The notes: generated by a model not told the origin, from the sequence alone. A stretch of DNA of 64,000 nt from Alphaproteobacteria bacterium UBA6411 (GCA_002438565.1 DJPN01000006.1:8544-72543), one strand, 5' to 3'. Positions 17,688 through 63,954 are shown, counted from the stretch's first letter. Numbers and translations are program-made.

Positions 17688-18350
17688 ATGACGAAAAAGT
17701 ACCTTGTTTTCGATTTGGACGGCACGTTAATCAACTCGATTCCCGATTTGTGCCGCGAAATCGGGCTGTTTTTGCAAAAACAGGGCGAACGTCCGCTGAC
17801 CGAACCCGAAACCGTGTCGATTATCGGCAACGGCGCGCGGGTCATGCTGGCGGGCGCGTTTAAATTGGTCGGCAAAGAAACGACACCCGAACAGTTTGAA
17901 GCTTTGCTGTCCGACTGGCTGAAACAGTACGCCGAAGCCCCGATGAACCAAACGAAACCGTGGAAAAACGTCGTTAAAACGCTTGAAAAACTGAAAGCAG
18001 ATGGCTTTCAGATGGCGGTTTGCACGAACAAACCCGCCGCCCCCACCAAAGCCATTTTGCAAAAGCTGGATTTGGAAAAATACTTTGATGTTGTGTTAAG
18101 CGCGGATTCGCTTCCCGTGCGCAAACCGCGCCCCGAACCGTTGTGGGAAGCCGTTAAACGCATGGGCGGAACGAACGATAACGCCGTCATGATTGGCGAC
18201 AGCGAAGCGGATGCCGAAGCCGCCCGAAACGCAGGCTTTCCCGTTGTTCTGCTCAGCTTCGGCTACGCGCATGTTCCGTTTTCCGAAATCAAACCCGATG
18301 CCCTGATAGACGATTTCGGCGATTTGCCCGCTGTCTTGTCAAAGCTTTAA
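17688..18350 (+). CDS. gph: HAD-superfamily phosphatase, phosphoglycolate phosphatase-like
   Basis: FDLDGTL HAD motif I and a later ..GDSEADAEAA.. motif. Start moved to the ATG at 17688, which has a GGAAG SD (MTKKYLVFDLDGT..). Confidence 0.75.
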   Translation: MTKKYLVFDLDGTLINSIPDLCREIGLFLQKQGERPLTEPETVSIIGNGARVMLAGAFKLVGKETTPEQFEALLSDWLKQYAEAPMNQTKPWKNVVKTLEKLKADGFQMAVCTNKPAAPTKAILQKLDLEKYFDVVLSADSLPVRKPRPEPLWEAVKRMGGTNDNAVMIGDSEADAEAARNAGFPVVLLSFGYAHVPFSEIKPDALIDDFGDLPAVLSKL

Positions 18351-19409: not shown

Positions 19410-19412
19410 TGC

Positions 19413-20210
19413 TTACCCCGCCTTTTTCAGCAGAAAAATATATTCATGTTTGAAAATATAATAGTCACTTGCCAAAGCTCTATATCTCCAAATCGAATTT
19501 TGGTTCTTTTTTCCGCGATTGCCGTCCATATTTTTCACAATGACACTTTTCAAGGTCAATCCCTGTCGCATAGCTTCCTGCATACAGTAAAAACCCAAAG
19601 GATACCATTGCCCTACGGAATACTTATCCCCGATAACAATCGCCAAATAACGCCCTTTTTCCAGAACACTGACTACATTTTCAACCACTTTTCCGAATTG
19701 TTCCAAAAATTTAAACAACGATTCTGCATTGGACAAGTCATTCGGATTATCGCTGAATTTGACTATATCGAAATAAGGTGGATGCAAAACCGCCAGCTGC
19801 ACATTTCTGCGATTATGTTTCGTTAAAACCGCACGCACTTTGTCGGGTGTCGAACTGTCCGCACTGTCTGCTTGAAATATCTCGAAAAAATTTTCAGACG
19901 ATGCATCCGACATTTTTTGTTGAATATACGAAACCATATCCGCTTTTAAATCTATCGCAATACAATTTCTGCCCAAAGTTTCCGCTTCGTAAACCGTCGT
20001 TCCGCTTCCCACAAACGGATCCAGCACAACATCCCCCGCTTTTGTATAGCGCTTTATCAGCTGCCGCGGAATTTGCGGAACAAAGTTCCCATGATAAAAG
20101 CCGTCATTTTTGCCGGAGTTATCGCGTTTGTCGATAATCCATAAACTGTCTGTTTCAATATCCCCCAAACTTTTCCAGTTTTGCATATCGAAATCGTTAA
20201 ACTTAGGCAT
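19413..20210 (-). CDS. Second DNA amino-methyltransferase (N6-A or N4-C). Motif I LDPFVGSGTT precedes motif IV HPPY, a gamma-like order.
   Basis: 265 aa. ..HGNFVPQIPRQLIKRYTKAGDVVLDPFVGSGTTVYEAETLGRNCIAIDL.. resembles the SAM-binding block of PF01555-type methyltransferases. HPPYF lies about 70 aa later, and a C-terminal region could be the target-recognition domain. Confidence 0.7.
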   Translation of the reverse strand: MPKFNDFDMQNWKSLGDIETDSLWIIDKRDNSGKNDGFYHGNFVPQIPRQLIKRYTKAGDVVLDPFVGSGTTVYEAETLGRNCIAIDLKADMVSYIQQKMSDASSENFFEIFQADSADSSTPDKVRAVLTKHNRRNVQLAVLHPPYFDIVKFSDNPNDLSNAESLFKFLEQFGKVVENVVSVLEKGRYLAIVIGDKYSVGQWYPLGFYCMQEAMRQGLTLKSVIVKNMDGNRGKKNQNSIWRYRALASDYYIFKHEYIFLLKKAG

Positions 20211-20430
20211 CGTTTTGTTCCCCGATTTCTTTAATCAGTTCAAGCGGGCTAACCCCCAGAAAATCAGCCAATTCTTTGACATTGCTTTTAACGGGAGTAT
20301 ATTTTTCGGATAGAATGTTCGACAGCTGCGCAGGGGTAATATTCAAGCAAGCCGCCAAATCCTTTAAAGATTCCAACTGCTTTTTTGCCATTAGCTCTTT
20401 CACCTTCAATCGGTTAATCACTAATTTCAT
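20203..20430 (-). CDS. Small HTH (XRE-family) regulator in the controller (C) protein position of the R-M operon
   Basis: About 75 aa. The HTH is LESLKDLAACLNITPAQLSNILSE. GAGGG SD before the ATG at 20430. Overlaps the downstream methyltransferase start by 8 nt. Confidence 0.6.
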   Translation of the reverse strand: MKLVINRLKVKELMAKKQLESLKDLAACLNITPAQLSNILSEKYTPVKSNVKELADFLGVSPLELIKEIGEQNDA

Positions 20431-20463
20431 TTTTACCCTCGGCAAATCAAAAATTCAAGTATT

Positions 20464-21132
20464 TTATGAATTTTCTTTTATTATTTTATTAAGCTCCTCA
20501 CGCCAGCGATACGGATTATGCCAAAAGCACCCGACACATCCCGCTTCATCGTTCGGGGAAGCCGCATCCCAATTTTCACCGCCTTTGTACCAGAAATGAA
20601 TCCCCGGGAAACAACCTCTTTTGCCCGTTTCAAAACATTTTTCGCATTGACGGGATTTCAACAAATTGTTTGAACGATTCAGTAACATAAATTTTGCTTT
20701 AAGCTCTTCATTGGAAAGTCTGTCGTTGTCCTGTTCGTTTTGCCCCCAGCGAATTTGCGGAAAACGATGATCAACTTCCAATTCCCTGTCAGATAATTTA
20801 CGGAGCAAAACAGCTTCTTCGTTTTTGTATAAATTTTTCACCCGTTTTGCAACAGCCTCCGAAATCCCCGAACGCGCTTTGGATACAGGCAATAACTCGG
20901 TTGAAGCCAGTTTGCGAAAAACAGTCTTGCTCTTGCAATGCGGACAATATTGTTTTTTAAAAAGATTGCCTTTCTCATCACAGTCAAGCTGAATCCCTTT
21001 TTCCTGCCGCCAAACTTGCCACGTTTTGGCTTGCCCCGATCTCAGCTCGCACTTTGTGCAATGCCATTGCAAATCGGACATTGTTTCGAAATCTTTGTAA
21101 TTCGTACTGCCTTCTTTAAAAGGATTCGTCAT
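20464..21132 (-). CDS. Cysteine-rich HNH-like nuclease, putative Type II restriction endonuclease
   Basis: 222 aa. Four CxxC pairs (CTKC, CPHC, CEKC, CVGC). A central ..ELEVDHRFPQIRWGQNEQDND..N.. stretch resembles the HNH / beta-beta-alpha-Me motif. First gene of the low-GC R-M operon. Confidence 0.5.
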   Translation of the reverse strand: MTNPFKEGSTNYKDFETMSDLQWHCTKCELRSGQAKTWQVWRQEKGIQLDCDEKGNLFKKQYCPHCKSKTVFRKLASTELLPVSKARSGISEAVAKRVKNLYKNEEAVLLRKLSDRELEVDHRFPQIRWGQNEQDNDRLSNEELKAKFMLLNRSNNLLKSRQCEKCFETGKRGCFPGIHFWYKGGENWDAASPNDEAGCVGCFWHNPYRWREELNKIIKENS

Positions 21133-50665: not shown

Positions 50666-51955
50666 ATGAAAAACGATACTTTTCTGGGACACCCCAAAGG
50701 GCTTTTTTTGCTGTTCGCCTCCGAATTGTGGGAGCGTTTTTCTTTCTATGCCCTGCGCTCTGTGCTGGTTTTATACTTGACCGCCTTGACGGTTGACGGC
50801 GGATTGGGGTGGAGCAAAACAAACGCTTTGCGGCTGTACGGCATTTATACGGGATTGATTTATGTCACGCCTTTAATCGGCGGCTGGCTGGCTGACAATA
50901 AACTGGGGCAACGCAAAGCCGTTTTAATCGGCGCAATGCTGATGGCGGCTGGACAGTTCGTTTTATCGGCAATCAACGGCGGATTGTACGCCGGACTGTC
51001 TTTGCTGATTTGCGGAAACGGACTGTTCAAGCCCAATATTTCAACCATGGTCGGCGATTTGTACGATCCGAACGACAACCGGCGGGACAGCGCGTTTACG
51101 ATTTTTTACATGGGAATCAATATCGGGTCGTGTCTGGCCGGCATTGCCGCGGGAATTGTGTCCGCCGCTTATTCGTTCAAAGCGGCTTTTTTCGTTGCGG
51201 GATTGGGAATGTTAGCCGCTTTGGGACTGCAAGCTTTCTTTGCAAAACATTATTTGGGAAGCATCGGAACGCTTCCCGCGGCAAAAAAAGCGGTTGCGGA
51301 AAATAAAACCGCCCTTTCCGAACAGGAAACCGATCATCTGCGCGCCTTGCTGGTTTTAGGGGTGTTCTCGGTTGTTTTTTGGGCGGGTTTTGAACAAGCG
51401 GGCGGATTGTTGAATTTATTCGCTACGGAACAAATCAACCGCACGGTCGCGGGCGTGACTGTGCCGGCCGCTTTTTTCCAGTCGCTGAATCCGTTTTTTA
51501 TTATTGTTTTGGCGCCGCTGTTCGCATGGATTTGGGTAAAACTGGGGGACAAAGACCCAAGCTTTACCGCAAAATTCATTCTTGCTTTGATTTTTTCGGC
51601 AACCGGTTTTTTGTTCATGCTGTTTGCGGCTTGGCAAAGCCGCGACGGATCAAAAGCGTCAATGATATGGCTGATAGCCACTTATCTTTTTCACACAATC
51701 GGCGAGTTGTGCCTGTCACCGACAGGGCTGTCCATGGTGGCGCGGCTTGCCCCCGCGCGGTGTTTGTCGCTGATGATGGGCGTGTGGTTCTGTTTTTCAG
51801 CTTTGGCGAATTTCATAGCGGGCTTCGTCGGGTCGTTTTTGGACGATTGGGGTGTTCTGCCGATTTTTGCCGTCCTGCTTGCCGTCAATGCGATTGCGGC
51901 TTTTACGCTGTGGGCTTTGTCGGGAAAACTGACCCGCTGGATGCGTAAATGTTAA
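50666..51955 (+). CDS. Proton-dependent oligopeptide transporter (POT/PTR2 family, DtpT-like). Possibly C-terminally shortened.
   Basis: 429 aa. ExxERFxYY-type N-terminus (ELWERFSFYALRSVLVLYL) and FKPNIS motif (GNGLFKPNISTMVGDLY). Its 3' end overlaps, convergently, the end of the first prophage gene. Confidence 0.85.
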   Translation: MKNDTFLGHPKGLFLLFASELWERFSFYALRSVLVLYLTALTVDGGLGWSKTNALRLYGIYTGLIYVTPLIGGWLADNKLGQRKAVLIGAMLMAAGQFVLSAINGGLYAGLSLLICGNGLFKPNISTMVGDLYDPNDNRRDSAFTIFYMGINIGSCLAGIAAGIVSAAYSFKAAFFVAGLGMLAALGLQAFFAKHYLGSIGTLPAAKKAVAENKTALSEQETDHLRALLVLGVFSVVFWAGFEQAGGLLNLFATEQINRTVAGVTVPAAFFQSLNPFFIIVLAPLFAWIWVKLGDKDPSFTAKFILALIFSATGFLFMLFAAWQSRDGSKASMIWLIATYLFHTIGELCLSPTGLSMVARLAPARCLSLMMGVWFCFSALANFIAGFVGSFLDDWGVLPIFAVLLAVNAIAAFTLWALSGKLTRWMRKC

Positions 51956-53097
51956 AAGCCGGCGTCAATTTCGTCTTGAGTTTGACGTAAATCCAGCAAA
52001 GGCCGCCTTGACGTTTCATTAAAAACTGGAACCGCTTTACAGCGGCAGTTGTACGCTTCGCCGGGGTTGCCGCCTGCAGGGGGATTTTCCGCATCAAAAA
52101 CACCGCCGTTGCGTTCGGCATGTTCCGCACGGACTCTGTCGTCATTTTGCGTTTCCCAAACGTACAGCGGCGCGTCAGCCGCTATATTCAGCAAAGCGGT
52201 TAAATTTTTATAGTCCTCCTTGGCTTCAAAATGATGTTTTACGACTTCGACTAATTTGTCATGTTCCTCTCCGTGTTCAAACAAATAAGCCGAACTGTTT
52301 AGAACATCGTTCAAATCCTTATCGGACAACATGCGGATTTCCGTCGGATCCGGCATTTTCAGCGCCGTTCCGGGAATTAAATGACGCACATCCGTCAACT
52401 GCGGATTTTTATGCAGGATTTCTTCGGGGGCGATGTTGTTTTCCTTGGCAATATTAAAAATCGTATCACCGGCTTTGACAATGTGGAGCTTTTCGATTAA
52501 GTCCTTGCGTTCATAGCGGTTCAGTTTTGCACGGTTGTTGAACACTTCGCGTTCCAAATCCGATTTTTTCAGATCTGTTCCATACTTGTCAAACAAATAC
52601 ATCCCCAGATTGACCGCGTTCGCATCCGTATTTTTATCACCGATAACATTGTTGAAATGACCATTTGCAACATCGTTTAAACGTCCTGCTATATCTAAAT
52701 TCCAGCCATAAACATCACTTAGTTTTCCTGCATAACCATAATGGATATTCGACCAAATATCATGGTCATACAGATATTTGTTATCCCCCGGAATCATCGT
52801 CCCGAAAACCGTAGCGGGTCGTCCTTTCGCATTTGTCAATTTTTTATGAAAATACGATGAAATGTGCTTTTTTAAAACAGGTTTGTGATCCCATTTTGCG
52901 TTACTACGCGCCAGAAAAAGCATCATCTTATTTTTGATAATTAAATTACTTTTTTGTATGTTTTCGACATCTTTGTCCTGCTGTCGAAGCTTCATTTCAT
53001 TAAAAATGCCCGTTACAGCTTTTTCATAATCCGATGATTTCGGATTTAAATGTTTGAATCCTTCATGTTTTGGTATATCATAAGTAGTCATCTTCAT
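51952..53097 (-). CDS. Phage protein with an unknown N-terminal domain, a central LysM peptidoglycan-binding domain and a C-terminal Mu gpF-like (head-morphogenesis/minor head protein) motif. The second ATG at 53091 is the likelier start.
   Basis: 381 aa. LysM: HIVKAGDTIFNIAKENNIAPEEILHKNPQL..LIPGTALKMP. MuF-like: ..YVWETQNDDRVRAEHAERNGGVFDAENPPAGGNPGEAYNCRCKAV.. (the DDRxRxxH...G.VF...PP...NCRC pattern). AAGGAAA SD. Confidence 0.7.
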   Translation of the reverse strand: MKMTTYDIPKHEGFKHLNPKSSDYEKAVTGIFNEMKLRQQDKDVENIQKSNLIIKNKMMLFLARSNAKWDHKPVLKKHISSYFHKKLTNAKGRPATVFGTMIPGDNKYLYDHDIWSNIHYGYAGKLSDVYGWNLDIAGRLNDVANGHFNNVIGDKNTDANAVNLGMYLFDKYGTDLKKSDLEREVFNNRAKLNRYERKDLIEKLHIVKAGDTIFNIAKENNIAPEEILHKNPQLTDVRHLIPGTALKMPDPTEIRMLSDKDLNDVLNSSAYLFEHGEEHDKLVEVVKHHFEAKEDYKNLTALLNIAADAPLYVWETQNDDRVRAEHAERNGGVFDAENPPAGGNPGEAYNCRCKAVPVFNETSRRPLLDLRQTQDEIDAGF

Positions 53098-53134
53098 TTT
53101 CCTTTCAGAGGTTAGAGTTGTTTAATTTTCAAAA
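53020..53134. repeat. Direct repeat, copy 1 (about 115 bp; covers the RBS and the first ~25 codons of the LysM/MuF gene)
   Basis: Near-identical to 53595-53709 (a handful of substitutions and one single-base indel). Confidence 0.85.
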
Positions 53135-53189
53135 TTATAAATTTTTAAAAAAATTTGGACTTAAAATTTTGTCATTATCTATTTTGGTT

Positions 53190-53591
53190 ATGATTTCATT
53201 TTTTTCTTATGAGATTTTTTTAGGCTTCAATAAAAGCCTATCATATTTATTAAATTTAATATTGTATTTGTCATTGTGTTATATTTTCCTTAGAACCACT
53301 TCACATTCTACAAGCAATAAAAAAAATACTGTATTCGTTACACTCTTATTGGCAATAGAATTGCTATTATCGGATATATTCTCATTTTTTATATTTGTTG
53401 TGCTTCCTATCGATGTTCCATTTAAGATAGACTACACTCTATCACTCATAATACCGGCAATATTTACAGCTATACTATTTAACTCGTTTAAACCAAGAAA
53501 AATACTATTCACAATAACACTAATAATACTTCTGCTTCCAATTTATTATCCTTTCATTGCCCATTTTCTTAATCTTTATCAGATTGAATAA
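53190..53591 (+). CDS. Very AT-rich, highly hydrophobic polytopic membrane protein (4-5 TM), candidate immunity / superinfection-exclusion moron. An alternative TTG start at 53118 lies inside repeat 1.
   Basis: 133-157 codons, open in a region that looks well under 30% GC where stops are frequent. Composition dominated by L/I/F/S/K/Y. Sits exactly between the two 115-bp direct repeats; its stop is 3 nt before repeat 2. Confidence 0.5.
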   Translation: MISFFSYEIFLGFNKSLSYLLNLILYLSLCYIFLRTTSHSTSNKKNTVFVTLLLAIELLLSDIFSFFIFVVLPIDVPFKIDYTLSLIIPAIFTAILFNSFKPRKILFTITLIILLLPIYYPFIAHFLNLYQIE

Positions 53592-53594
53592 AAT

Positions 53595-53709
53595 TTTTTC
53601 ATAATCCGATGATTTCGGATTTAAATGTTTGAATCCTTCATGTTTTGGTATATTGTAAGCAGTCATCTTTCTTTTCCTTTCAGAGGTTTGCGTTGTTTAA
53701 TTTCAAAAA
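53595..53709. repeat. Direct repeat, copy 2. On the minus strand it starts a 48-codon orphan ORF whose first ~25 aa copy the LysM/MuF protein N-terminus.
   Basis: Minus strand reads ..AAAGGAAAAGAAAG ATG ACT GCT TAC AAT ATA CCA AAA CAT GAA GGA TTC.. (MTAYNIPKHEGFKHLNPKSSDYEK..), then diverges and stops after 48 codons, antisense to the 3' end of the membrane-protein ORF. Confidence 0.8.
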
Positions 53710-53849
53710 GTTCAAAAAATTCAAGTATTGTTCGCAACGCTGTTGATTGCATCTATTTTATTTCTTCCAAACACTTTGAAAATAATGGGAATTGTTATCA
53801 ATCTTATTTTTCCTTATACTCCATTTATTGAAGAGTAATCAAATTCCAT

Positions 53850-54071
53850 TCACCGCGCGCACAATCGGTCATAGACGATGTTGTTCATATCGATTTGCCG
53901 GATTGTTTGCGCGGTGTCATGATCGTAATCGGCGTAAATCGGCCGATACAGCTCACAAAACCCGCCGCTTGTAAGCGTCGTGCAGCCGCTTGACAACAGC
54001 AGGATTGTCCAAATCGGAACGTGCTTTGCGCGCCGCTGCCTCGGCTTTTGATTTTTTGTCGATTGTTTCAT
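53850..54071 (-). CDS. Outer-membrane lipoprotein, o-spanin (Rz1-like), overlapping the i-spanin gene out of frame
   Basis: 73 aa. Signal plus lipobox ..WTILLLSSGC. The start lies inside the upstream TM-anchored ORF. Confidence 0.6.
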   Translation of the reverse strand: MKQSTKNQKPRQRRAKHVPIWTILLLSSGCTTLTSGGFCELYRPIYADYDHDTAQTIRQIDMNNIVYDRLCAR

Positions 54072-54165
54072 TTTTTTCCTTTTGCCGTCCTGCCCGAAAA
54101 GCGAAAATCATTCCGCCGATCAGCAGGACGGCTTGAGCTGTCAGAATAACGGCTAAATCAGACAT
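53953..54165 (-). CDS. Small N-terminally TM-anchored periplasmic protein, i-spanin (Rz-like) candidate
   Basis: About 70 aa. MSDLAVILTAQAVLLIGGMIFAF TM segment, then a charged helical region. ATGTCTGA overlap with the upstream ORF. The o-spanin is embedded in its 3' half. Confidence 0.45.
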   Translation of the reverse strand: MSDLAVILTAQAVLLIGGMIFAFRAGRQKEKNETIDKKSKAEAAARKARSDLDNPAVVKRLHDAYKRRVL

Positions 54166-54349
54166 TTGTCTCTTTGCCGTCATTGATTTTGGCATTGACG
54201 ATGGACAACACGTCCAATATTTTGACGATTTTTGCCAATACGGCATCGTCTTTTTGCGTCGGGGTCGCTTTGACGATGATTGACGCCGCCGCAACAACCG
54301 TTCCGAACCAAAACAGCACGGTTTCAAAGATTTGTCCCAAGTTTTCCAT
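54158..54349 (-). CDS. Small single-TM protein in the lysis cassette (second holin/antiholin or spanin component)
   Basis: 63 aa. MENLGQIFETVLFWFGTVVAAASIIV.. AAGGAAAAG SD. Between the endolysin and the spanins. Confidence 0.45.
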   Translation of the reverse strand: MENLGQIFETVLFWFGTVVAAASIIVKATPTQKDDAVLAKIVKILDVLSIVNAKINDGKETNV

Positions 54350-54824
54350 GACTTTTCCTTTCGTGTAACAATAAATCGGGGCGGAAATCAACCCGCCCCG
54401 TCGAAAACAATTCGGCTTCGCGCCTTCGCCGCAGTTTCAAACCCTTCCACACATAACCGCCCGCATAAACCCAGCGCATCAGTTCTTGCGGCACTTTGTC
54501 GTAAGCCCCGTCGTTCAGCACGCGCAGCAAAGTCGATCCTGCGAAGTTCCGCCGCCCGATATTGAAAGCGAACGAAATCAGCGCGTCTTTTTGACATTGT
54601 TTCAGCGGCACTTTAACCAGTTCCGCCACCGCGGCTTCCGCTTCGGCGACATCTTGGCGCAACAGTTCTTCGGCTTTTGCTTCGCTGACCCCTGCAGGAA
54701 AGCTTTCACCGCCTTTGACTACGTGACCGTAACCGATTGTGCGCCTGCCCGCGACACAAGTGTATTCCAGCGGCACAAAGCTTTCAAAAGCCTTGAGCAT
54801 AGCCAGTCCTTTTTTGCTTATCAC
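54324..54824 (-). CDS. Phage endolysin, GH24 lysozyme (P22 gp19 / T4 lysozyme family)
   Basis: 166 aa. ..ISKKGLAMLKAFES..TIGYGH..FNIG..FAGSTLLRVLN..LRRRREAELF.. closely parallels the P22 lysozyme. GTG start overlaps the holin stop (GTGA). Confidence 0.9.
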   Translation of the reverse strand: MISKKGLAMLKAFESFVPLEYTCVAGRRTIGYGHVVKGGESFPAGVSEAKAEELLRQDVAEAEAAVAELVKVPLKQCQKDALISFAFNIGRRNFAGSTLLRVLNDGAYDKVPQELMRWVYAGGYVWKGLKLRRRREAELFSTGRVDFRPDLLLHERKSHGKLGTNL

Positions 54825-54985
54825 GCGCGCTCCCCTTGGTTTTTAAACAGAAAGTAAACGCGCCCGACGGCATAAACCAGCGTCGCAATTCCGATAAAGA
54901 AACCGACGTATTCGTTGAATACGCCAATCCACGCGGGGGCGGTCAAACCGATGCCGACCGCCCCTGCCTCTTTGACATTTTGCAT
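54821..54985 (-). CDS. Holin candidate (54 aa, two predicted TM helices)
   Basis: Below the track's ORF size threshold. MQNVKEAGAVGIGLTAPAWIGVFNEYVGFFIGIATLVYAVGRVYFLFKNQGERA. AGGAGGGG SD 7 nt upstream. Immediately precedes the endolysin. Confidence 0.55.
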   Translation of the reverse strand: MQNVKEAGAVGIGLTAPAWIGVFNEYVGFFIGIATLVYAVGRVYFLFKNQGERA

Positions 54986-54997
54986 TGTTTTCCCCTC

Positions 54998-55369
54998 CTA
55001 CATGAACGTGTCCAGCAAAGACAGCGAGTACTTCAGCTTTGCGGCCTTTTTTTCCGCGCGCGCTTTTCGCATTGAGCGGTACGCTTCACCAACCGCCTGC
55101 TTTTTGTTAAATTCCGCCTCCTGCTCGGTTTTCAAATCATTGTAAAACAAGGCATCGTCGTACGAATTCGCCTTGACGCCCGAAGCCCCGATAAGTGCCA
55201 GATTTTTGCCGCGTTCTTCGTTGTTTTCGCGGCGCAGCTTTTTTTCATCCCACGCGTTTTTATCCAATGAAGCCCGAGCCTCATCCCGCGCATCTAGGTA
55301 AGCAAGTTTCGCCTTTTTCCAATTCTGCCGAACGGTCAGCAGTTTTCCCGCCGTTTTCAGTTTTTCCAT
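54998..55369 (-). CDS. Hypothetical charged phage protein in the position, and of the size, of T7 gp13
   Basis: 123 aa from the ATG at 55369 (MEKLKTAGKLL..). GGAGGA SD 5 nt upstream, directly after the tail tubular B stop. Confidence 0.5.
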   Translation of the reverse strand: MEKLKTAGKLLTVRQNWKKAKLAYLDARDEARASLDKNAWDEKKLRRENNEERGKNLALIGASGVKANSYDDALFYNDLKTEQEAEFNKKQAVGEAYRSMRKARAEKKAAKLKYSLSLLDTFM

Positions 55370-55379
55370 TTCATCCTCC

Positions 55380-57374
55380 TCATATTTTGTTTGCCGCCAC
55401 CACCGGGAACACACCCAATACAGTCAGCGGCAAAGGTTGATTTTGTTCAATTCTGACGGATACTCCGTTTTCCCACCCGCCCGAATACGCGACTTTTTTG
55501 TCGCCGGTAAACAAAGCCGGCGCTTTTCCCATGACATCGCTGATTTGCCGAAACGACAAAGGCTCGCCCGTTTTTTCCAACCCGATTTTAAAGCCGATGC
55601 TTTTGTATAAACGCACCAATACGGCGACAATGCGCTTTTTGGCAAATTCGCCGGCCACTCCGTTTGTCAAAGGCATTGTTTGTAAAACAGACCGGAACGG
55701 CAATCCGACATGCACGACGCCGGCCGCCGTATCCAGTGTAATTTTGCCGTCTGTTACCGTCTTTTCGTTCTGCACCGCGCCGTCGGCCAAAACGGCAACC
55801 GTCTGCCCTTCCAAGTATTCAAGCCCCGAAATTACCGACACTTTATCCCCGCGATACGACGCACCGCAATCCACGAAAAAAGCTTCCATGGAATTTTCGG
55901 CATCTTCGGGCAAGCCGGTTTCCATCACTTCGATGTAGCGGACGGCTTGTCCGTTGACAACACGGCGGACGATTAGATACAGCTCGTCTTTTTCCCCGTT
56001 TGCCGTCGGCAAAGACGCTATGCTTTCAACCTTTCCGTTTTCCGTTTGAAAAGTATGCCATGCGGAAACGGATTCTTCGGCTTCGTAAGTCAAACCCGCC
56101 AGTTTTCCGTTTTTCAGCAAACACCACACAACGGGAACGGGTTCTTGCTGCAAGGCCATTTCTTTGATGCCGCCGAACGTCATGTGCGGCGCCAAAGTCG
56201 TCACATCGCGCGCAACATAGTCGTCCGAAGAGCTGTCGTACTGAAAAGCGCGCACTTTCCGGCCGTAATGCTGAACGAACAAAGTCGCATGACTGACTTT
56301 GACGGGCTGAACGGCCTCGCTGCCAAAGCTTGAGTGTCGCTGCACTTTCACATTCAGCGGCAAAGACGTGTCCCCGCTTGTCGCCGTCAGTGTAAAATCA
56401 GCCCCGACAGTGCCGATGGCCAAAGCTCTGCCGGACGACAGCCAGCAAATATCGTTGATTTGATCGGACGACAATTCGCATCCGTAGCCGTATTCCGCCG
56501 TCACACTTGCATCGGCGGCCGTCGGGGAAAAGATTTCATATTGTCCGACTTTCGACCCGTAAACGCTGTTGCCTTTGCCCAAAACCAGTCTTTGCTCAAA
56601 AAAAGTCACGGCGTTCGCATATCCCGTTGTTTTTGAAAACGCGCCCAAACGCCAAAACTTCGTCGCCGTCGCCGACAAAAAAGGATAGCCGTCTGTCCCG
56701 ACCGCTTTGACAACAGTCGCCCCGACATATTCCGTGATTGTCGCGCACCCCCATTGCACATTGGGTTTGTTTGCGTGCATTAAGCGCACTTGACGGCCGA
56801 CATCCGTTGCCTTGAACACCCCTGCGGAAGCCGTCAAAGTCATCGCCCCGGACAGTGCGGAGGGCGTAATCGAAATATTTTCCGCATTGACGGGCAAATA
56901 CGGACCGTCCATCATTGCAAAGTCCGACAACCGCCAATCCGTCATTCCGTATCGCGTCAAAGTCTTTAACGGAAAATCCTTGTGCGCAATGAAAACGACA
57001 TCCCCCGATTGGGAAAAATACAAACCGTCCAAATCCGCCTCCGCATACGGAGATTTGATTTCATAGGTCGCGCCGTTGCTCAGCACGGGTTGCCCGTGAT
57101 CGAAAAAACGGATGTATTTATCACCGAATTCCAGCAAATAAGCCTGCGTTACGGAAAACTGAAAAGCATACAGACGCGCTTTTTTGTTATTGTCTTTGAC
57201 TGCAGAAACAAAGCGCGTTCCGCCGCGTCTGGATACCGGCCCCTGCACCGACGGAATAAAGTTCTGCAAAACCTGACACGCGCCGCCGTATTCCTCGGTG
57301 TCAATGCGACCGCTCATCAAATCGGATATTTCCCCCGTATTGAAACGGACAAAGCCCAAAGTATCCGCCATCAC
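55380..57374 (-). CDS. T7 gp12-like tail tubular protein B
   Basis: 664 aa. N-terminal ..NTGEISDLMSGRIDTEEYGGACQVLQNFIPSVQGPVSRRGGTRFV.. parallels T7 gp12 (..NLKGGISQQPD..RYPDQGSRQVNGWSSETEGLQKRPP..). Follows the tubular A gene with an ATGA overlap. Confidence 0.65.
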   Translation of the reverse strand: MMADTLGFVRFNTGEISDLMSGRIDTEEYGGACQVLQNFIPSVQGPVSRRGGTRFVSAVKDNNKKARLYAFQFSVTQAYLLEFGDKYIRFFDHGQPVLSNGATYEIKSPYAEADLDGLYFSQSGDVVFIAHKDFPLKTLTRYGMTDWRLSDFAMMDGPYLPVNAENISITPSALSGAMTLTASAGVFKATDVGRQVRLMHANKPNVQWGCATITEYVGATVVKAVGTDGYPFLSATATKFWRLGAFSKTTGYANAVTFFEQRLVLGKGNSVYGSKVGQYEIFSPTAADASVTAEYGYGCELSSDQINDICWLSSGRALAIGTVGADFTLTATSGDTSLPLNVKVQRHSSFGSEAVQPVKVSHATLFVQHYGRKVRAFQYDSSSDDYVARDVTTLAPHMTFGGIKEMALQQEPVPVVWCLLKNGKLAGLTYEAEESVSAWHTFQTENGKVESIASLPTANGEKDELYLIVRRVVNGQAVRYIEVMETGLPEDAENSMEAFFVDCGASYRGDKVSVISGLEYLEGQTVAVLADGAVQNEKTVTDGKITLDTAAGVVHVGLPFRSVLQTMPLTNGVAGEFAKKRIVAVLVRLYKSIGFKIGLEKTGEPLSFRQISDVMGKAPALFTGDKKVAYSGGWENGVSVRIEQNQPLPLTVLGVFPVVAANKI

Positions 57375-57928
57375 AGCCTCGCTTCCAGCCAGCCGCGCTG
57401 GGTATAGCCGTCTTGAACGCCTTCCATGGCCGAAGCGGTTTTCGCCTGTTGAACAAAAGCGTGATATTCCTTGTTCAATGTTTCTTTCAGCGCAACCGAC
57501 GCCGTCAGCGGAACGGCAAGCTCCGCCGCCAGTTTCAGCGCCAGCGCCTCGACAAACATCGGATCGAAAAACGTTGCGTCCTCAATGCGTGAAATGCCGA
57601 CAAAACGCAGTATCGGCGCGTTGTACAAAACAGTCTGTCCTTCGACTTGATAGTTTTCCTCCTCTTCCGTCCGCCAAACACGCAAGCAATCCGCAGGTAA
57701 AGCAAATCTGTATTCATAACCGTACAGCGGTTTGTCTTTCAGCGGAGCCAAAGCATAACGCTTCAGCGCGAACCGCCAAGGGTACGACCGCAATACGAAA
57801 TCGCGCGTATCCGCATACAAAGCTTTGCAGTAACGGGCGGGTTTAGTATCGTCGTCCAGCGACAAAATCACAGGTTCATCGCCGATTTTCGATAAAGCGC
57901 GATTGCACAAAGCAACGATTGAAGTCAT
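57371..57928 (-). CDS. T7 gp11-like tail tubular protein A
   Basis: 185 aa. ..NRALSKIGDEPVILSLDDD.. and ..SYPWRF.. parallel T7 gp11 (..NDILASIGEPPVSTLEGD.. / ..SRGWTF..). Confidence 0.65.
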   Translation of the reverse strand: MTSIVALCNRALSKIGDEPVILSLDDDTKPARYCKALYADTRDFVLRSYPWRFALKRYALAPLKDKPLYGYEYRFALPADCLRVWRTEEEENYQVEGQTVLYNAPILRFVGISRIEDATFFDPMFVEALALKLAAELAVPLTASVALKETLNKEYHAFVQQAKTASAMEGVQDGYTQRGWLEARL

Positions 57929-57990
57929 TTTCTGCTCCTTTCACAACAAAAAAGCGGCGGAGATTTCTCCCCGCCGTTTGACAAGCAAAA

Positions 57991-58896
57991 TCATTCTTTG
58001 CAGTTGATTTTAACGACCAGCTCTTCCTGCATGCGGGTCGCGCCGATAGCCATTTCATAGTAAACCTGCGTCGCAAAGCATTTGTCGTCACGTTCCGTGA
58101 TTTTTCCGATGATATCCTCACCGATGCCCAGTTTGATGCCGTCGCTCTGGAATGCCAGACACGAACGCCCCACGGCCGCGGGACTGTCGCCCGTTGACAT
58201 CACCGTCGGCAAAATCAGCGAACCGTCCGCTTTTTTCGCATTCAGCTGAACAAACTTAAAGCCCATGAATTCCTCGATTTCCCCGCGGACAAGAGCTTTC
58301 GCGGCAGCGTAATCGGCTGATGTCACTTTCGTTTCACTCAGCAAATCGTCCAGCTGCTGAGCGGACAGAACGATATAGCGCCCTTCGGACGGCGCATCGT
58401 TTTTGTCAAACAGCCGCTTGACTTCGCGCAGTTTGTCGAACGTGAATTTGGAAGCGCACGCCGCATCGACAATCTGCGACGCCGGCAAAGCAACTTCCGT
58501 CGCCCCCGTTTCGCCGGTATACGCCGCCCCCAAAGCGGCTTCGACGATTGCTTCATCAATCGCGCGCCCCATCGCCCAAGCGGCGGCGTTCGCATAATCG
58601 TTCGTCGGATCGATAAGCATGCGCACTTTGTCGTCGTTGTCGATTAAATCCGCCCAATGATAAGTGTCCAAACTCAAACGGCGGCGTTTGTGCGGCGTGT
58701 CGGACTGCGGAGTCGCGGCGTGGCGCGTCGTCTTTTTGACGGCGGCAACCTGCCCGATCTGGTCGATGAAAGCCGCCTTGCCGCGCACGCTTTCAAAACC
58801 GACCAAATTGCGCAATTTTGATCCTTTCTGCTGCACCAAAGCTTGAATGTTCGAGCTGTACTGGTCGACAAAAGAAGTGGTAATCTGTGTACTCAT
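57991..58896 (-). CDS. T7 gp10-like major capsid protein
   Basis: 301 aa. ..RGKAAFIDQIG.. / ..DTYHWADLIDNDDKV.. / ..AMGRAIDEAIVEAALG.. mirror the T7 gp10 blocks (..SGKSAQFPVLG.. / ..IDGLLTADVLIYDIED.. / ..AMAADGAVLAEIAG..). Confidence 0.65.
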   Translation of the reverse strand: MSTQITTSFVDQYSSNIQALVQQKGSKLRNLVGFESVRGKAAFIDQIGQVAAVKKTTRHAATPQSDTPHKRRRLSLDTYHWADLIDNDDKVRMLIDPTNDYANAAAWAMGRAIDEAIVEAALGAAYTGETGATEVALPASQIVDAACASKFTFDKLREVKRLFDKNDAPSEGRYIVLSAQQLDDLLSETKVTSADYAAAKALVRGEIEEFMGFKFVQLNAKKADGSLILPTVMSTGDSPAAVGRSCLAFQSDGIKLGIGEDIIGKITERDDKCFATQVYYEMAIGATRMQEELVVKINCKE

Positions 58897-58976
58897 TTAA
58901 TTTTCCTTTCTGTTTTCAATCAACAAAAAAAGCCCCGTTTCAAACGGAGCCGTTACAAAAAAACGTTTGCCCGAAA

Positions 58977-59504
58977 TCAGTCTTCGTTGAACAAACGCTT
59001 GCGCAAAGCGTAAACAGCCTGAACGGTTTTGGCGTGATCGGGATGCTGCGCCTGCATATAGGCCGGATTGGAAGTCAACCCCGCGATTTCGGCTTTCAGC
59101 CGATCGGCAGAGGGAACAACGGCCGATTTTTCACCCACCAATCCCCTGTCTTCGCCCGCCGCATCGGCCAGCCGCATTAAAAAAGCAACGATTTCGCGGC
59201 AGTTGCACAATCCCGTTTCGTTCAAAAATTCAACAAAGCCGTCACCGCCGTACTTGCGCACCAAATCCGCCGCGCCATTTCGTCTGCGGTCAAAATCGCG
59301 TCCGAATTGACGGCGCAATTCGGATTCGGCATCCTGCACGTATGTTTCGGAATCGTTATTCAGTTCTTCCGCAAATTCACGCACGCCGTCTTCAATCCAG
59401 CCCCAAACGCCGGCCTCCTGCCGTTCGTTCAATCCCAAACTTTCAGCCAAATCGTGGAATTCGGCCTTGTCTTCATCATCGATAAAGTCGTTTACGTTAC
59501 TCAT
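58977..59504 (-). CDS. Acidic scaffolding protein candidate
   Basis: 175 aa, strongly acidic. Lies between the portal and capsid genes, as T7 gp9 does. Confidence 0.45.
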   Translation of the reverse strand: MSNVNDFIDDEDKAEFHDLAESLGLNERQEAGVWGWIEDGVREFAEELNNDSETYVQDAESELRRQFGRDFDRRRNGAADLVRKYGGDGFVEFLNETGLCNCREIVAFLMRLADAAGEDRGLVGEKSAVVPSADRLKAEIAGLTSNPAYMQAQHPDHAKTVQAVYALRKRLFNED

Positions 59505-59769
59505 TGTTTTTCCTTTCAGCTTGTTGCAATAAAGTAATCAACCGCTTTTCATCGCAAGCGGTCATCTTCAATATATCCAGAAAAGCGGCGCGCTTTCCGT
59601 CATAGAACGCGCTTGTCGCAACGCCGGACACATCGGTTACAGGGGTCAGCATATGGCATTTGATTGCCAAATCCTCCAAAACCGCCTGCCCGTTTTCGGA
59701 TAAAAAAACAGCCTTGTAAGCTTGTACCAGCTCCAAGGCTTTTTTGGCTTTGTCCCGTCTGTCAAACAT
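59497..59769 (-). CDS. Small hypothetical phage protein (start taken at MFDRRDKAKK..)
   Basis: About 90 aa, between portal and scaffold. The track ORF start overlaps the portal gene's 3' end. Confidence 0.4.
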   Translation of the reverse strand: MFDRRDKAKKALELVQAYKAVFLSENGQAVLEDLAIKCHMLTPVTDVSGVATSAFYDGKRAAFLDILKMTACDEKRLITLLQQAERKNNE

Positions 59770-61249
59770 CGCCCTCCTCCCTTTGTCCCGTGTGAAGCAA
59801 ATCTTCCGAAATGCCGTACATTTCGGCAATTTTCCGCACTGTTTTCGGAACATCGAAAACACTTGCCGCGTCCGGCTGCAGTCTTAAAAAGCCTTCCGCC
59901 AGCTCCAATGTTTGAAGCATCGCCTGCGCTTCGACCTGCCTTTGCGCCAAAGACAGCGGCGACAAATACGACACCGCCGGCATTTTCCCGTGCAAAGAGT
60001 CGGGCAAAGGCGGCAGTTTCCCGTGCCGTATCAGCAGTCCGAACACACGCTCCATCATCGGCCCCAGCAGCTCCGTTTGAATACGCCCGAACACGGGACC
60101 CAACAACCGCATTTTTTCCTCGTTTCTGTGCAAAACTTCGGTTGCGGTCATCGCGGCGTCTTTGGTCGTCATCAAAACGTCGTTGTAAAAAGCGGTGCGA
60201 AGTCTGGCTCGGATTTCGTTCATCATATCCAGCCCTATGCTTGAATTCGCTCCCGACGAAAACGGCTTCGGCGGCTCTCCGTTATAGCGGATGACTCCGC
60301 CCGGAACAGTCGCCAGCGGAGAAAACTGATCATCGTCGCGCACCAGCACGGGCGGACGGTTTGCCAGCTGAGCCGCTATCAGCGTTTCCCTCATCATCTC
60401 CTGCAGCATTTTTATGTCGGGCAAAGCCGAAAAAGCCGGCGACCGGCCGTACACTTCGCCGCTGGCTTTGCTCCAGCGCACAACGAACAAAGGCATTTCG
60501 TCAAACCCGCCGGAAAACAAGACCGTTTGGCTGTCTTTCAGCACATACGCCGATAAAACGGGCTTTTGAAAAACAGCTCCCTTTTCATACAGCGGATTAG
60601 GCAAAACAGCGTGAATGATTTCACATTCTTCTTCCTTCCCTTGCGAAAACAAAGTTTTCAACCGCTCGGGCAAAACATCCGTTCCCCATGTTTTAACGAT
60701 TTTCGACACGGGCAAACGAAATACGCGGTAAACCTCGTCCACCTGCCCCGCCGCGTTTTCGGAAATGAACAGTTCGCCCAAAAAACGGGACTGAAACAAC
60801 AAACAATCCTTGTCTTCGTTCCATCCGACATACAGTCCTGCCGTCCCCAGCACCGCCAAATCCAAATAAACTTCGTGGATATTGGTCGCAAAAGCCGCCG
60901 CCGGCTTTGCGATTTCATCGGCAATGATCCGTTCCGCCTGTTCCAACCATCGGCGGACAGGCTTGCTGTCGGACATGCCCGCTGTTTGCAAAGCAAACCA
61001 CTTTCCCGCGGGATTTGTCATCAATCCGTGCAGCCCCGCCGCCAGCAGTTCCGCCGCGTTGACGGCCGTGGTCTCGAACAGCTTGCGCGTTCGGGGCGTT
61101 CCAGCCGTCTGAGCAACCGTAAAATCGGCTTTTCGCGGCAGGACAAGCTCGGAAATTTCCTGCCACGATTTTTCAAAATTCAGACGATTGCTTTTCAAAG
61201 CGGCAACCTTGTCAGCCACCTGCTTTGCCAAAGAAACAATCTCTCTCAT
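59762..61249 (-). CDS. T7 gp8-like portal (head-to-tail connector) protein. Start taken at the ATG at 61249; the track ORF extends to 61357.
   Basis: About 495-531 aa. ..TPRTRKLFETTAVNAAELLAAGLHGLMTNPAGKWFALQ.. parallels T7 gp8 (..TPWQAVGARGLNNLASKLMLALFPMQTWMRL..). Size matches the T7 portal. Confidence 0.65.
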   Translation of the reverse strand: MREIVSLAKQVADKVAALKSNRLNFEKSWQEISELVLPRKADFTVAQTAGTPRTRKLFETTAVNAAELLAAGLHGLMTNPAGKWFALQTAGMSDSKPVRRWLEQAERIIADEIAKPAAAFATNIHEVYLDLAVLGTAGLYVGWNEDKDCLLFQSRFLGELFISENAAGQVDEVYRVFRLPVSKIVKTWGTDVLPERLKTLFSQGKEEECEIIHAVLPNPLYEKGAVFQKPVLSAYVLKDSQTVLFSGGFDEMPLFVVRWSKASGEVYGRSPAFSALPDIKMLQEMMRETLIAAQLANRPPVLVRDDDQFSPLATVPGGVIRYNGEPPKPFSSGANSSIGLDMMNEIRARLRTAFYNDVLMTTKDAAMTATEVLHRNEEKMRLLGPVFGRIQTELLGPMMERVFGLLIRHGKLPPLPDSLHGKMPAVSYLSPLSLAQRQVEAQAMLQTLELAEGFLRLQPDAASVFDVPKTVRKIAEMYGISEDLLHTGQREEGDV

Positions 61250-61250
61250 C

Positions 61251-61574
61251 TTACAGCCCCAACAAGCTTTTGCGTCCGCCCAATCCGACAGAACTGTTTC
61301 CGCCCAGCAATCCCGCAAAAACCACTTTGGATTTTTTGCCGCGGCGGCGTTTTTCATCCAACTGATTTAAAAAGTCATTTTCTTCCGCGGCGGCGGCCTG
61401 TTCAACGGCTTGTTCCGCCGCCTGCTGTTTTCCCTGTTCAATTTGATTGTTTTCCCGCTTGGCGTCTTTGTAGCCGTGAACCGCCGCCGAAGCAAAGCCC
61501 GTAGTCATTCCCAAAATCAAAGCGGGATTGAGCATACGTTTGAAAATTTTGCTTGTAATTTTTTTCAGCTTCAT
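61251..61574 (-). CDS. Small hypothetical protein with an N-terminal hydrophobic segment and a Gly-rich C-terminus
   Basis: 107 aa. Its stop is 1 nt before the portal ATG. Confidence 0.4.
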   Translation of the reverse strand: MKLKKITSKIFKRMLNPALILGMTTGFASAAVHGYKDAKRENNQIEQGKQQAAEQAVEQAAAAEENDFLNQLDEKRRRGKKSKVVFAGLLGGNSSVGLGGRKSLLGL

Positions 61575-61695
61575 TTTTTTCTCCTTGAGTATAAAAAAAG
61601 ACGCCTGTAAAAACAGGCGCCTTCATACGCATCTAACGCATTGTATTAACAATATGTCATAATTTTTTCTAATTGTCAATACATTTTGTTATATT

Positions 61696-62712
61696 TTATT
61701 TGCTCATTCCCGCTTTGGCTTTCAAAACCGCAGGATTGACAACGGTTTTCTTGCCGCGATTTTCTTTCTTTTCCGCGATTTTTTCGGCAGCGGCGGCTTG
61801 GCGGTTTTCAATCGTCGGCAAAGGCAGCGCTTCCGGCACAATCCGTTTCGGCATATATGTAAAGTGCGGACGCATCACCAAATCCAGCTTGTTTTTCATT
61901 TCCTCGTTCTGGTCTTTGGAATAATCCAGCTTGTACGGCCGATAGCAGTTGGCATAAATATTGTTGAAGCGTTCAAACGAAACCGTTTTGGCATCATCCG
62001 TGCTGAAAAATTCTTGCGTTTCCTTTTCGGACAAATACGGCTTGCCGTTGCAGGTGCAGACTTTCTGCACCACGTCGTTCACGGGTACTTCCCGCATAAA
62101 AGCTTGATTTTCTTCTTCGCGCGTACAGTTGCGTTTGCGCTGACGCACCATTTGAATATACAGGCAGTCATAGCTGTCGCGGGTGCAGTAATCGGTGAAC
62201 CATCCTTTGAACGCGGCCTTGTACGCTTCGCCGTTTTCCAGTCCGCCGTTGACCGCGGCGTTTTGGAACGGATTGACGAAATGCGGATCTTTTTCGCGCA
62301 GGCTTTCCAGCGGTTTGTCGTTGCCCTGCAAAGCCAGCTCGTAACACGCGGCGCAAGACGTCGCGGACGCGTCGGCTTCAATGGCGGCTTGGTTTTGGAT
62401 GTAAGTTTTCGGCGTATCCAGCAAAGCATCCAGCAAAATGCCTTTTTGGAACTGTTGGGCGTGCCTCAATTCATGCGCCGCCGTTCCGATTAAACGGTCA
62501 TGGGAACTGGTCGGATTCAAACGCAAATGGTTTTTCACTTCGTCATACGAACCGTAAGCGCGCATCGCCCCGTCGAAAGCAACCGTTGTTTTGTGTTCAA
62601 CGGCATCCTCAATCAGCTGCTTGCCGATTTTGCTTTTCGCCAGTTCGTCCATCACGGCTTTGATGCGAGATTCTTCTTCTTCGTTTTCGGCTTTGATAAT
62701 AGGATATTCCAT
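61696..62712 (-). CDS. Putative zincin-like metallopeptidase-motif protein (HExxHxxQQ, DUF4157-like) with a Cys-rich C-terminal region
   Basis: 338 aa. ..LIGTAAHELRHAQQFQKG.. The C-terminal ~230 aa contain about 11 Cys (CAACYE, YCTRDSYDCLY, KVCTCNGKPY, ANCYRPY). Confidence 0.55.
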   Translation of the reverse strand: MEYPIIKAENEEEESRIKAVMDELAKSKIGKQLIEDAVEHKTTVAFDGAMRAYGSYDEVKNHLRLNPTSSHDRLIGTAAHELRHAQQFQKGILLDALLDTPKTYIQNQAAIEADASATSCAACYELALQGNDKPLESLREKDPHFVNPFQNAAVNGGLENGEAYKAAFKGWFTDYCTRDSYDCLYIQMVRQRKRNCTREEENQAFMREVPVNDVVQKVCTCNGKPYLSEKETQEFFSTDDAKTVSFERFNNIYANCYRPYKLDYSKDQNEEMKNKLDLVMRPHFTYMPKRIVPEALPLPTIENRQAAAAEKIAEKKENRGKKTVVNPAVLKAKAGMSK

Positions 62713-62844
62713 TTTCCTGCCCTTTTGTCGAAAATTTTGTTTATTTCTGATAGCGATTGTACAATTTCACAAAAACGATGTCCAGCAAAATAACGCTAAA
62801 ATCCTTGACTTTTTTCCGATAAACGCTTTAATCGCCTTAACACT

Positions 62845-63954
62845 ATGGAAAAGGAGTTGCTTATGCTGAAATTTGAGGTTGAAAAAACCGTCGGACGGTC
62901 GCGTCTGGGCAAGCTCTACACCGCGCACGGCGTTGTGGAAACCCCCGCGTTCATGCCGGTCGGCACGGTCGGCACGGTCAAAGCGATGATGCCCGAATCG
63001 GTCGCCGAAACGGGGGCGCAAATTCTGTTGGGCAACACCTATCATTTGATGCTGCGTCCCGGCGCGGACAGAGTCCAACGCTTGGGCGGCCTGCACAAAT
63101 TTATGAACTGGAACAAACCGATTCTGACCGATTCGGGCGGTTTCCAAGTCATGTCGCTGTCCAAACTGCGCAAAATCACCGAAGACGGCGTCGACTTCCG
63201 CTCCCATCTGGACGGCAGCCTGCACCGCCTTTCACCCGAAATTTCCATCGGCATTCAGTACAAGCTCGACAGCAACATCACGATGTGCTTCGACGAATGT
63301 CCGCCCTATCCCGCGGATAAAAAGTATGTCGCTGATTCGACCCGCCGCTCGATGCGCTGGGCAAAACGGTCGCGCGATGCGTTTGTCGACCGCGACGGCT
63401 ACGGAATTTTCGGCATCGTTCAAGGCGGCGTACACGAAGATTTGCGCCTTGAATCCTGCGAATCGCTGACAAACATCGGCTTTGACGGCTACGCTTTGGG
63501 CGGTTTGGCGGTCGGCGAAGGACAGGAATTGATGTTCGACACGATTTCGTTCACCACACCTCACCTGCCCGATGACAAACCCCGCTATTTGATGGGGGTC
63601 GGCCGGCCGTCGGATATCGTTGGCGCGGTCTTGCGCGGCGTCGACATGTTTGACTGCGTCATGCCCAGCCGTTCGGGCAGAACGGCGCAAGCGTTCACAC
63701 GCAACGGCGTTTTAAACATGCGCAACGCGTGTCACATCGACGATGAAAGGCCGATTGATTCGCAATGCCTCTGCCCCGCGTGCCGCAATTACAGCCGCGC
63801 GTACATCCACCACTTGTTCCGCGCCCATGAAATCCTCGGCGCAATGCTGCTGACGTGGCACAATCTGACATATTATCAAGACTTGATGAAGGGCATCCGC
63901 CAAGCGATTCGCGAAGACCGTCTGGAAGAATTCGCAAAAGGCGACTTTTCATGA
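62845..63954 (+). CDS. tgt: Queuine tRNA-ribosyltransferase
   Basis: 369 aa. ..TPAFMPVGT.., DSGGFQ, and a CxCxxC..H zinc site near the C-terminus. Confidence 0.95.

Follow-up and report, generated by a model that had tools for sequence, protein, structure and literature searches.

A putative metallopeptidase of the family DUF6782 encoded beside a phage-derived structural island in Alphaproteobacteria bacterium UBA6411

The locus and the family of the encoded protein

The subject of this analysis is a stretch of 64,000 nucleotides from Alphaproteobacteria bacterium UBA6411 (GCA_002438565.1, DJPN01000006.1:8544-72543), referred to below as the window, and in particular a gene near its end that encodes a putative zinc metallopeptidase of 338 residues (61696..62712, minus strand). 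The initial annotation, prepared from the sequence alone, had pointed to two open reading frames (ORFs) here, a zincin-like one and a smaller one following it, and both proved to be real, the smaller one encoding 107 residues (61251..61574, minus strand). The zincin gene does lie, as was proposed, at the very edge of a phage-derived region. On one side it is bordered by the divergent tgt (62845..63954, plus strand), a host gene for queuine tRNA-ribosyltransferase (PF01702, E=6.5e-157), and on the other by the 107-residue ORF, the first gene of a phage-like structural operon. The divergent intergenic region shared with tgt contains, upstream of the zincin gene, a promoter-like site (TGGACA-17-TACAAT; 62756..62784, minus strand) recognised by consensus match only. 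The description of the zincin gene as a DUF6782-family gene of the host chromosome draws on the ORF itself, a Pfam match, an AlphaFold model and substitution rates.

The 338-residue protein matches PF20573 (DUF6782, a putative metallopeptidase family) with 188.5 bits and E=1.5e-55, the gathering cut-off being 27 bits; the match spans residues 9-227 of the protein and positions 23-240 of the 241 in the profile. It is this Pfam score over most of the profile, together with the conserved HExxH motif, that assigns the protein to DUF6782. PF20573 is matched by all 93 relatives gathered in the family alignment (17-64% identity), with secondary Pfam matches to Peptidase_M78 and DUF3920 (13 relatives each), Peptidase_M91 (6) and SprT-like (4). 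Judged by its sequence, the protein is another member of a catalogued peptidase family, and the family itself is already known, since the NCBI records name the relatives 'DUF6782 family putative metallopeptidase'; no paper found by the literature search mentions DUF6782 or PF20573. A word-indexed search retrieved 40 relatives of the protein, and a HMMER search of 1.84 billion cluster representatives gave 1468 DUF6782 matches at E<=1e-3, each representing a cluster at 50% identity; the members are mostly 300-400 residues long and nearly all stand-alone. What is new here is the basic tail ending with Arg or Lys that is found family-wide, the arrays of paralogues in gut Alphaproteobacteria, and a fold that beyond the zincin core is unmatched in PDB and BFVD.

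Concerning the earlier proposals on the protein family, a zincin-type putative metallopeptidase was borne out through the DUF6782 match, but the more specific assignment to DUF4157 was not: a match to PF13699 was found neither for the 338-residue protein at E<=1 nor for the 93 relatives at E<=0.01, and the DUF4157 identity was rejected in favour of DUF6782. The motif AAHELRHAQQ is present, its HELRH part covering residues 80-84 (62475-62461), with H80, E81 and H84 invariant in the 93 relatives. It had been read in the register HExxHxxQQ, which we take to be the DUF4157 signature; the actual register is HExxH-x-QQ (H84-A85-Q86-Q87), i.e. one residue off, and only Q87 is conserved. The likeness to DUF4157 consists of a small zincin-like module in which HExxH is closely followed by Gln, the registers being one residue apart, whereas the 338-residue protein is stand-alone and found in housekeeping contexts, not at the N-terminus of a polymorphic toxin or of an injection-system cargo. 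The view that the gene is not a phage structural one holds, and neither is it an early or middle gene of the T7 type. The initial annotation would have been abandoned by its author for a protein lacking DUF4157 and matching a T7 early or middle gene; the former part is what was observed, the latter is not, the protein being a DUF6782 zincin. The PADLOC defence scan of the zincin gave no match and NCBIfam nothing meaningful, and a role in defence or anti-defence was rejected on these results.

Active site, fold and C-terminal tail

The residues invariant across the 93 relatives are H80, E81, H84, E112, D114, Y181 and Y226, a layout of the HExxH+E type, while R83, Q87, W171, A113 and A115 are conserved in at least 90% of them. 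Such conservation indicates that the HExxH motif is not a chance occurrence. The HELRH segment (residues 80-84; 62461..62475, minus strand) is predicted to form the zinc-binding and catalytic helix, as judged from its conservation in the 93 relatives and from the alignment to IrrE, and E112 of the EADA segment (residues 112-115; 62368..62379, minus strand), which is carried by the next helix in the AlphaFold model (residues 101-128), is the presumed third zinc ligand. In the mechanism proposed, H80 and H84 together with E112 would hold a zinc ion, E81 would serve as the catalytic base that activates a water molecule, and stabilising the transition state may fall to Y181 and/or Y226, both of which are invariant.

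The AlphaFold2 model, calculated with the family alignment, shows a single compact, mainly helical fold up to about residue 300, with a predicted local distance difference test score (pLDDT) of 91.9 and a predicted template modelling score of 0.87. The approximately 230 C-terminal residues, described previously as unassigned, belong to the same domain and fold, since DUF6782 covers residues 9-227 and the model is compact to about residue 300; this helical C-terminal half would build the substrate cleft. A search of solved structures with the single sequence of the protein gave no match, and Foldseek with the model found nothing at E<=1e-3 in PDB and BFVD. The weak and partial similarities seen by Foldseek (TM-score normalised to the query, TMq, at most 0.32) concern IrrE/PprI, Wss1, selecase and M1 peptidases in PDB, as well as IrrE-like and SprT-like phage proteins.

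The C-terminal region had also been described as rich in cysteine. This holds loosely for the composition—8 cysteines in 338 residues (2.4%), reaching 3.5% in the last 230 residues, versus 1.07% for the ORFs of the window—but not for a feature of the family, C219 (78 of the 93 relatives) being the sole conserved cysteine, and the CAAC at positions 120-123 being mostly Ala or Val in the relatives. A cysteine cluster or metal site in the C-terminal half was ruled out because the cysteines are not conserved.

The C-terminal tail (residues 301-338; 61699..61812, minus strand) is modelled as low-confidence helices, with pLDDT falling to 51-78. It is basic and ends with Lys; in the 93 relatives, the last residue is Arg in 64 and Lys in 10, and the mean net charge of the last 30 residues is +5 versus -0.3 elsewhere. 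The N-terminus of the 338-residue protein is acidic, and no hydrophobic N-terminal or membrane-spanning segment was seen in the protein or in 90 of the 93 relatives. Binding of nucleic acid or of a membrane, a function as export signal, and autoinhibition of the active site, as known from minigluzincins, are conceivable roles of the tail; in the mechanism proposed, these approximately 35 residues ending with Lys or Arg would target or regulate the enzyme.

The nearest solved relative is IrrE (PDB 3dte), matched by the family profile with E=4.9e-4 over the β-sheet and the HExxH segment. In this alignment, the DUF6782 segment '...GSYDE..v.LN......R..gTlAHELRHA' is placed against '...GAYDPEHHVILINSQVRPERQRFTLAHEISHA' of IrrE, the HELRH part being aligned with TLAHEISHA. 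The Glu follows 28 residues after the second His in the 338-residue protein, close to the spacing of about 27 that is presumably found in IrrE, and neither the protein nor ImmA/IrrE has a signal peptide. Unlike ImmA/IrrE, the protein has no helix-turn-helix (HTH) or GAF domain, and it possesses its own helical C-terminal half; the fold match to IrrE covers just the core (TMq 0.20-0.23). A match to PF06114 (Peptidase_M78) is lacking for the protein itself and is weak in the 13 relatives mentioned above (best E=1.5e-5). The relation to Peptidase_M91 (PF14891), the NleD-type family, is one at the superfamily level only: the zincin core is shared and 6 of the 93 relatives match it weakly, but the 338-residue protein has neither an M91 match nor the context of a type III system.

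Genomic context and the neighbouring island

Among the 29 related loci obtained by scanning a single genome of each species, which include Acetobacter sp. CAG:977, nearly all are titled uncultured Alphaproteobacteria or Rhodospirillales; where a sample source is named, it is animal gut, faeces or rumen. The order seen in the window—tgt, DUF6782, small ORF, portal and further genes up to the lysozyme—recurs in 14 loci (L001-L011, L013, L017 and L021), and tgt neighbours the zincin orthologue in 18 of the fetched loci. Four of the loci, L012, L014, L015 and L016, have the orthologue (50-55% identity) about 1.25 kb from tgt, and the locus sequence examined contains neither the portal gene nor any further gene of the island; these orthologues are clearly nearer to the protein of the window than is the second group of paralogues from the same genomes (36-41% identity). 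In L015, the genes follow each other as tgt, HAD hydrolase, DUF6782, CoA-transferase, a gene of the Mur-ligase family and a carboxyl-transferase gene. The adjacency of CoA-transferase and DUF6782 is repeated in a relative of about 25-30% identity, and further distant relatives also occupy housekeeping neighbourhoods. In a tblastn search, none of the 50,697 phage and 72,556 plasmid records matched the zincin. The zincin gene is under purifying selection, its ratio of non-synonymous to synonymous substitution rates (dN/dS) being 0.06-0.18 against close orthologues, at a dS like that of tgt. Because of the orthologues at loci without the island, the housekeeping contexts and the missing phage and plasmid matches, the zincin gene is regarded as a host gene abutted by the island; the idea of a cargo carried by a phage remnant is contradicted by the same observations and by the empty PADLOC scan.

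The genomes of gut Alphaproteobacteria contain at least 4-5 DUF6782 paralogues each, several of them in tandem. A second, separate locus has one divergent paralogue of about 340-350 residues beside a tandem array of 2-4 more. The tandem arrays of 2-4 paralogues (about 335-380 residues, with HE(S/C/A)RHAGQ), all on one strand, are present in L018-L026, L030 and L031, those of L030 and L031 adjoining rpsU; in all of these paralogues, the HExRHxxQ motif is intact and the C-terminal tail basic. Two giant proteins, P0088 (2563 residues) and P0090 (2804 residues), combine Sel1 repeats with two DUF6782 domains each, P0088 having additionally an APH kinase-like domain. P0090 (L034, 8001-16415) shares its contig of 1.5 Mb with genes for an ankyrin-repeat protein and for YMF19-type ATP synthase B subunits. 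These Sel1 fusion proteins give weak matches to Peptidase_M91, and their architecture looks effector-like.

As for the 107-residue ORF, it was said to follow the zincin gene directly; a spacer of 121 bp intervenes, however, in which a promoter-like block, itself conserved, precedes a hairpin and a T-run. The promoter/operator-like block, ACAAAATGTATTGACA-N14-TGACATATTGT (61649..61689, minus strand), is unique in the window, where none would be expected by chance, and it is kept almost base for base as ACAAAATGTRTTGACA-N14-TGACATAKTGT in all but one of the 14 syntenic loci fetched, its 16-mer occurring once in each of these 13. It reads as a TTGACA -35 element separated by 17 nt from an extended -10 element (TG, one base, CATATT), with the arms of the imperfect inverted repeat AACAAAATGT...ACATATTGTT on either side. 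About 25 nt beyond the block, the leader of the phage-like operon contains a hairpin plus T-run (61597..61624, minus strand), made up of a 12-bp stem and 7-8 consecutive T, the stem letters varying by species while the pairing is kept; the same structure with other stem sequences is seen in L005, L013 and L009. It is placed so as to terminate the zincin transcript and is thus a candidate terminator. The Rfam scan of the intergenic leader revealed nothing at the gathering score. The order of promoter, leader terminator and operon is reminiscent of the phage late operons controlled by antitermination.

The downstream end of the 107-residue ORF is tightly coupled to the portal gene, encoding a head-tail connector of the T7 type (59762..61249, minus strand; PF12236, E=7e-122 from residue 45), the stop codon and the probable portal start forming TAAgATG with just one base between them. 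This start is M37 of the 531-residue ORF, which as mechanically listed begins 36 codons early and overlaps the end of the 107-residue ORF in another frame (61250-61357); the alignments of portal homologues begin at residues 30-42. The '...WAD.K.CWGC...' peptide read in the overlapping frame owes its apparent conservation to the sequence that codes for the conserved GLGG.K.LLGL, and in L006 this frame is closed by a stop. Homologues of the 107-residue protein are present in all 14 portal-bearing loci and were found only with the portal cluster. In L015, the small ORF is missing, and the zincin gene and a convergent neighbour are just 55 bp apart; in all paralogue loci, too, the zincin occurs without the small ORF, so that the check for co-occurrence argued against a zincin/small-ORF pair. 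Taken together, the elements in the spacer, the coupling to the portal and the distribution identify the 107-residue ORF as the first gene of the phage-like operon and not as a partner of the zincin.

Of the two properties ascribed to the 107-residue protein, the Gly-rich part stands, the C-terminus F.G.LG....GLGG.K.LLGL being invariant in the homologues, whereas the hydrophobic N-terminal stretch is not conserved, and the protein was therefore rejected as a membrane protein. Matches to phrog_1320, 'host range and adsorption protein', were given by 5 of 11 homologues (best E=1.1e-4); tblastn found no match of the ORF in the phage records, and identity with T7 gp7.3 was also rejected (hhalign probability 2.9% against a gp7.3 sequence). 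In its position and its C-terminal motif, the protein resembles the small pre-portal protein of the HTVC010P-type podoviruses. The gene order of the Pelagibacter podovirus HTVC010P is large terminase, gp03, gp04 and portal, and gp04, with 80 residues versus 107, is likewise positioned directly before the portal. The two share a C-terminal pattern of basic residues, S..(I/V).(F/L).G..G and then G(K/R)(K/R)SLLG(Q/L), the end of gp04 being ...KGRSTTILTGPKG...GKRSLLGQ and that of the 107-residue protein ...GKKSKVVFAGLLG...GRKSLLGL. The hhalign match between the family of the 107-residue ORF and gp04 is weak (E=0.018, probability 2.6%), and the two loci differ in that HTVC010P has the terminase gene upstream of the small ORF, whereas the window has the host zincin gene there and no terminase.

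The island covers about 9.6 kb (51952-61574, minus strand) and consists of structural and lysis-type genes only. The small pre-portal ORF and the portal gene are followed by those for a Bbp19-like protein, a scaffold-like protein, the capsid (PF19821) and tail-tube A, and further on by tail-tube B/nozzle, a gp14-like internal protein, the lysozyme and an Ntox44-LysM-MuF protein. Genes for a terminase, an integrase or replication were found neither in the island nor next to it, the terminase search covering the entire window. The island occurs at the same locus, beside tgt and DUF6782, in 14 species-level genomes with all ORFs intact, and it is under purifying selection there; its dN/dS, calculated for the portal, scaffold-like, capsid, tail-tube and lysozyme genes, is 0.03-0.11 at dS 0.2-0.9, comparable with that of tgt. 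The capsid shares 52-53% identity with those of the HTVC010P-type Pelagibacter podoviruses. The island looks domesticated, in the manner of a gene transfer agent, rather than being a decaying remnant; no relevant paper on a gene transfer agent of the HTVC010P type emerged from the literature search.

At the far end of the island (51952-53097, minus strand), the 381-residue Ntox44-LysM-MuF protein consists, according to its domain matches, of Ntox44 (residues 64-171), LysM (residues 205-249) and the C-terminal part of the Mu F/SPP1 gp7 head-morphogenesis domain (residues 312-355); the usual MuF-toxin fusions have a different domain order. The G+C content falls to 0.31 versus about 0.52 at 53000-54000, where a plus-strand ORF of 157 residues gave no family match; among loci that are otherwise syntenic, the length of this stretch differs, L003 for instance having about 1.1 kb more. 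Elsewhere, the window consists of core chromosome, with dnaE, bamA, lpxD, glmS, thrS, proS, rseP, a gene for an FtsX/MacB-type permease, tig and clpP. Amid the core genes, there is also a patch of low G+C content (0.40-0.45) at 18000-21000 with a gene for a D12-class N6-adenine DNA methyltransferase inside it (18351-19409, minus strand); the patch may have been acquired, for instance as a restriction-modification islet.

Mode of action and alternative explanations

Based on the above results, it is probable that the 338-residue protein is a zinc metallopeptidase with a single domain, located in the cytoplasm and inherited with the chromosome, that neither forms part of the island nor is paired with the 107-residue ORF. 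By analogy with ImmA/IrrE (M78), it would most likely cut one or a few specific proteins rather than bulk protein. Several points should be weighed against this explanation. In each of the 14 island-bearing genomes, the zincin gene is located directly upstream of the island and oriented like it, so that a functional link may exist, and the genomes without the island are the more distant ones (50-55% identity), for which island loss is an alternative to an insertion here. Moreover, the protein itself does not match Peptidase_M78, the matches of its relatives being few and weak, and no cognate repressor gene lies next to the zincin gene, none of the HTH/XRE type being adjacent to it in the window, L015 or L032. 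Finally, the zinc ligands are predicted from conservation and spacing.

An exported effector is an unlikely alternative. According to this explanation, DUF6782 proteins would leave the cell without a signal peptide, e.g. through a type IV system of the VirB/D4 type, and cleave proteins of the animal host or of competitors, the arrays being a diversifying repertoire. A positively charged C-terminus is a known type IV secretion signal, and the basic tail is not only found throughout the family but also retained by all array paralogues; the numerous paralogues per genome in gut-associated lineages, the giant Sel1 proteins with two DUF6782 domains (one with an APH domain, the other sharing its contig with an ankyrin-repeat gene) and the weak matches of six relatives to the NleD effector family point in the same direction. 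On the other hand, no secretion-system gene was found within 8-10 kb of any member examined, and one relative, from a housekeeping neighbourhood free of markers of host association, carries the domain without the basic tail. Around six diverse members, no conserved partner, such as a secretion system or an HTH regulator, was found.

It is very improbable that the zincin is a switch protease, turning on particle production by cleavage of a repressor that occupies the conserved inverted repeat overlapping the island promoter (61689-61649). ImmA/IrrE proteases act by cleaving a repressor and are the nearest recognisable relatives, and the gene lies directly upstream of the promoter/operator-like block of the island in 14 of 14 island-bearing genomes. 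Nevertheless, orthologues persist by tgt at loci without the island, the family is widespread in housekeeping contexts free of phage genes, no repressor gene is adjacent and the zincin gene has a candidate terminator of its own. The extended version, with the zincin as the switch arm and the island as a domesticated, terminase-less head-tail module of an HTVC010P-type podovirus resembling a gene transfer agent, is given little chance, too; transcription would also have to pass the leader terminator (61624-61597). If this version were true, the island would be a new podovirus-derived particle system similar to gene transfer agents.

The DUF4157-type toxin, effector or anti-defence module of a phage remnant, with the 107-residue ORF as its partner or immunity protein, is scarcely credible, since the presence of HExxH followed by QQ and the position at the edge of a phage-like region are outweighed by the absence of a PF13699 match in the protein and its 93 relatives, by QQ being one residue off HExxHxxQQ, by the host contexts free of phage genes, by the lack of phage and plasmid homologues and of a PADLOC match, and by the promoter-like block and terminator dividing the two ORFs, the smaller of which travels with the portal and not with the zincin.

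The locus does not, then, represent a new phage toxin or anti-defence module. The host-borne gene for the putative metallopeptidase marks the boundary of a domesticated-looking, phage-derived structural island, which is the more notable object of the two. Concerning the family, DUF6782 emerges as a sizeable one, with an unmatched fold beyond the zincin core and a strikingly conserved tail ending with Arg or Lys, that is expanded in poorly known gut Alphaproteobacteria.

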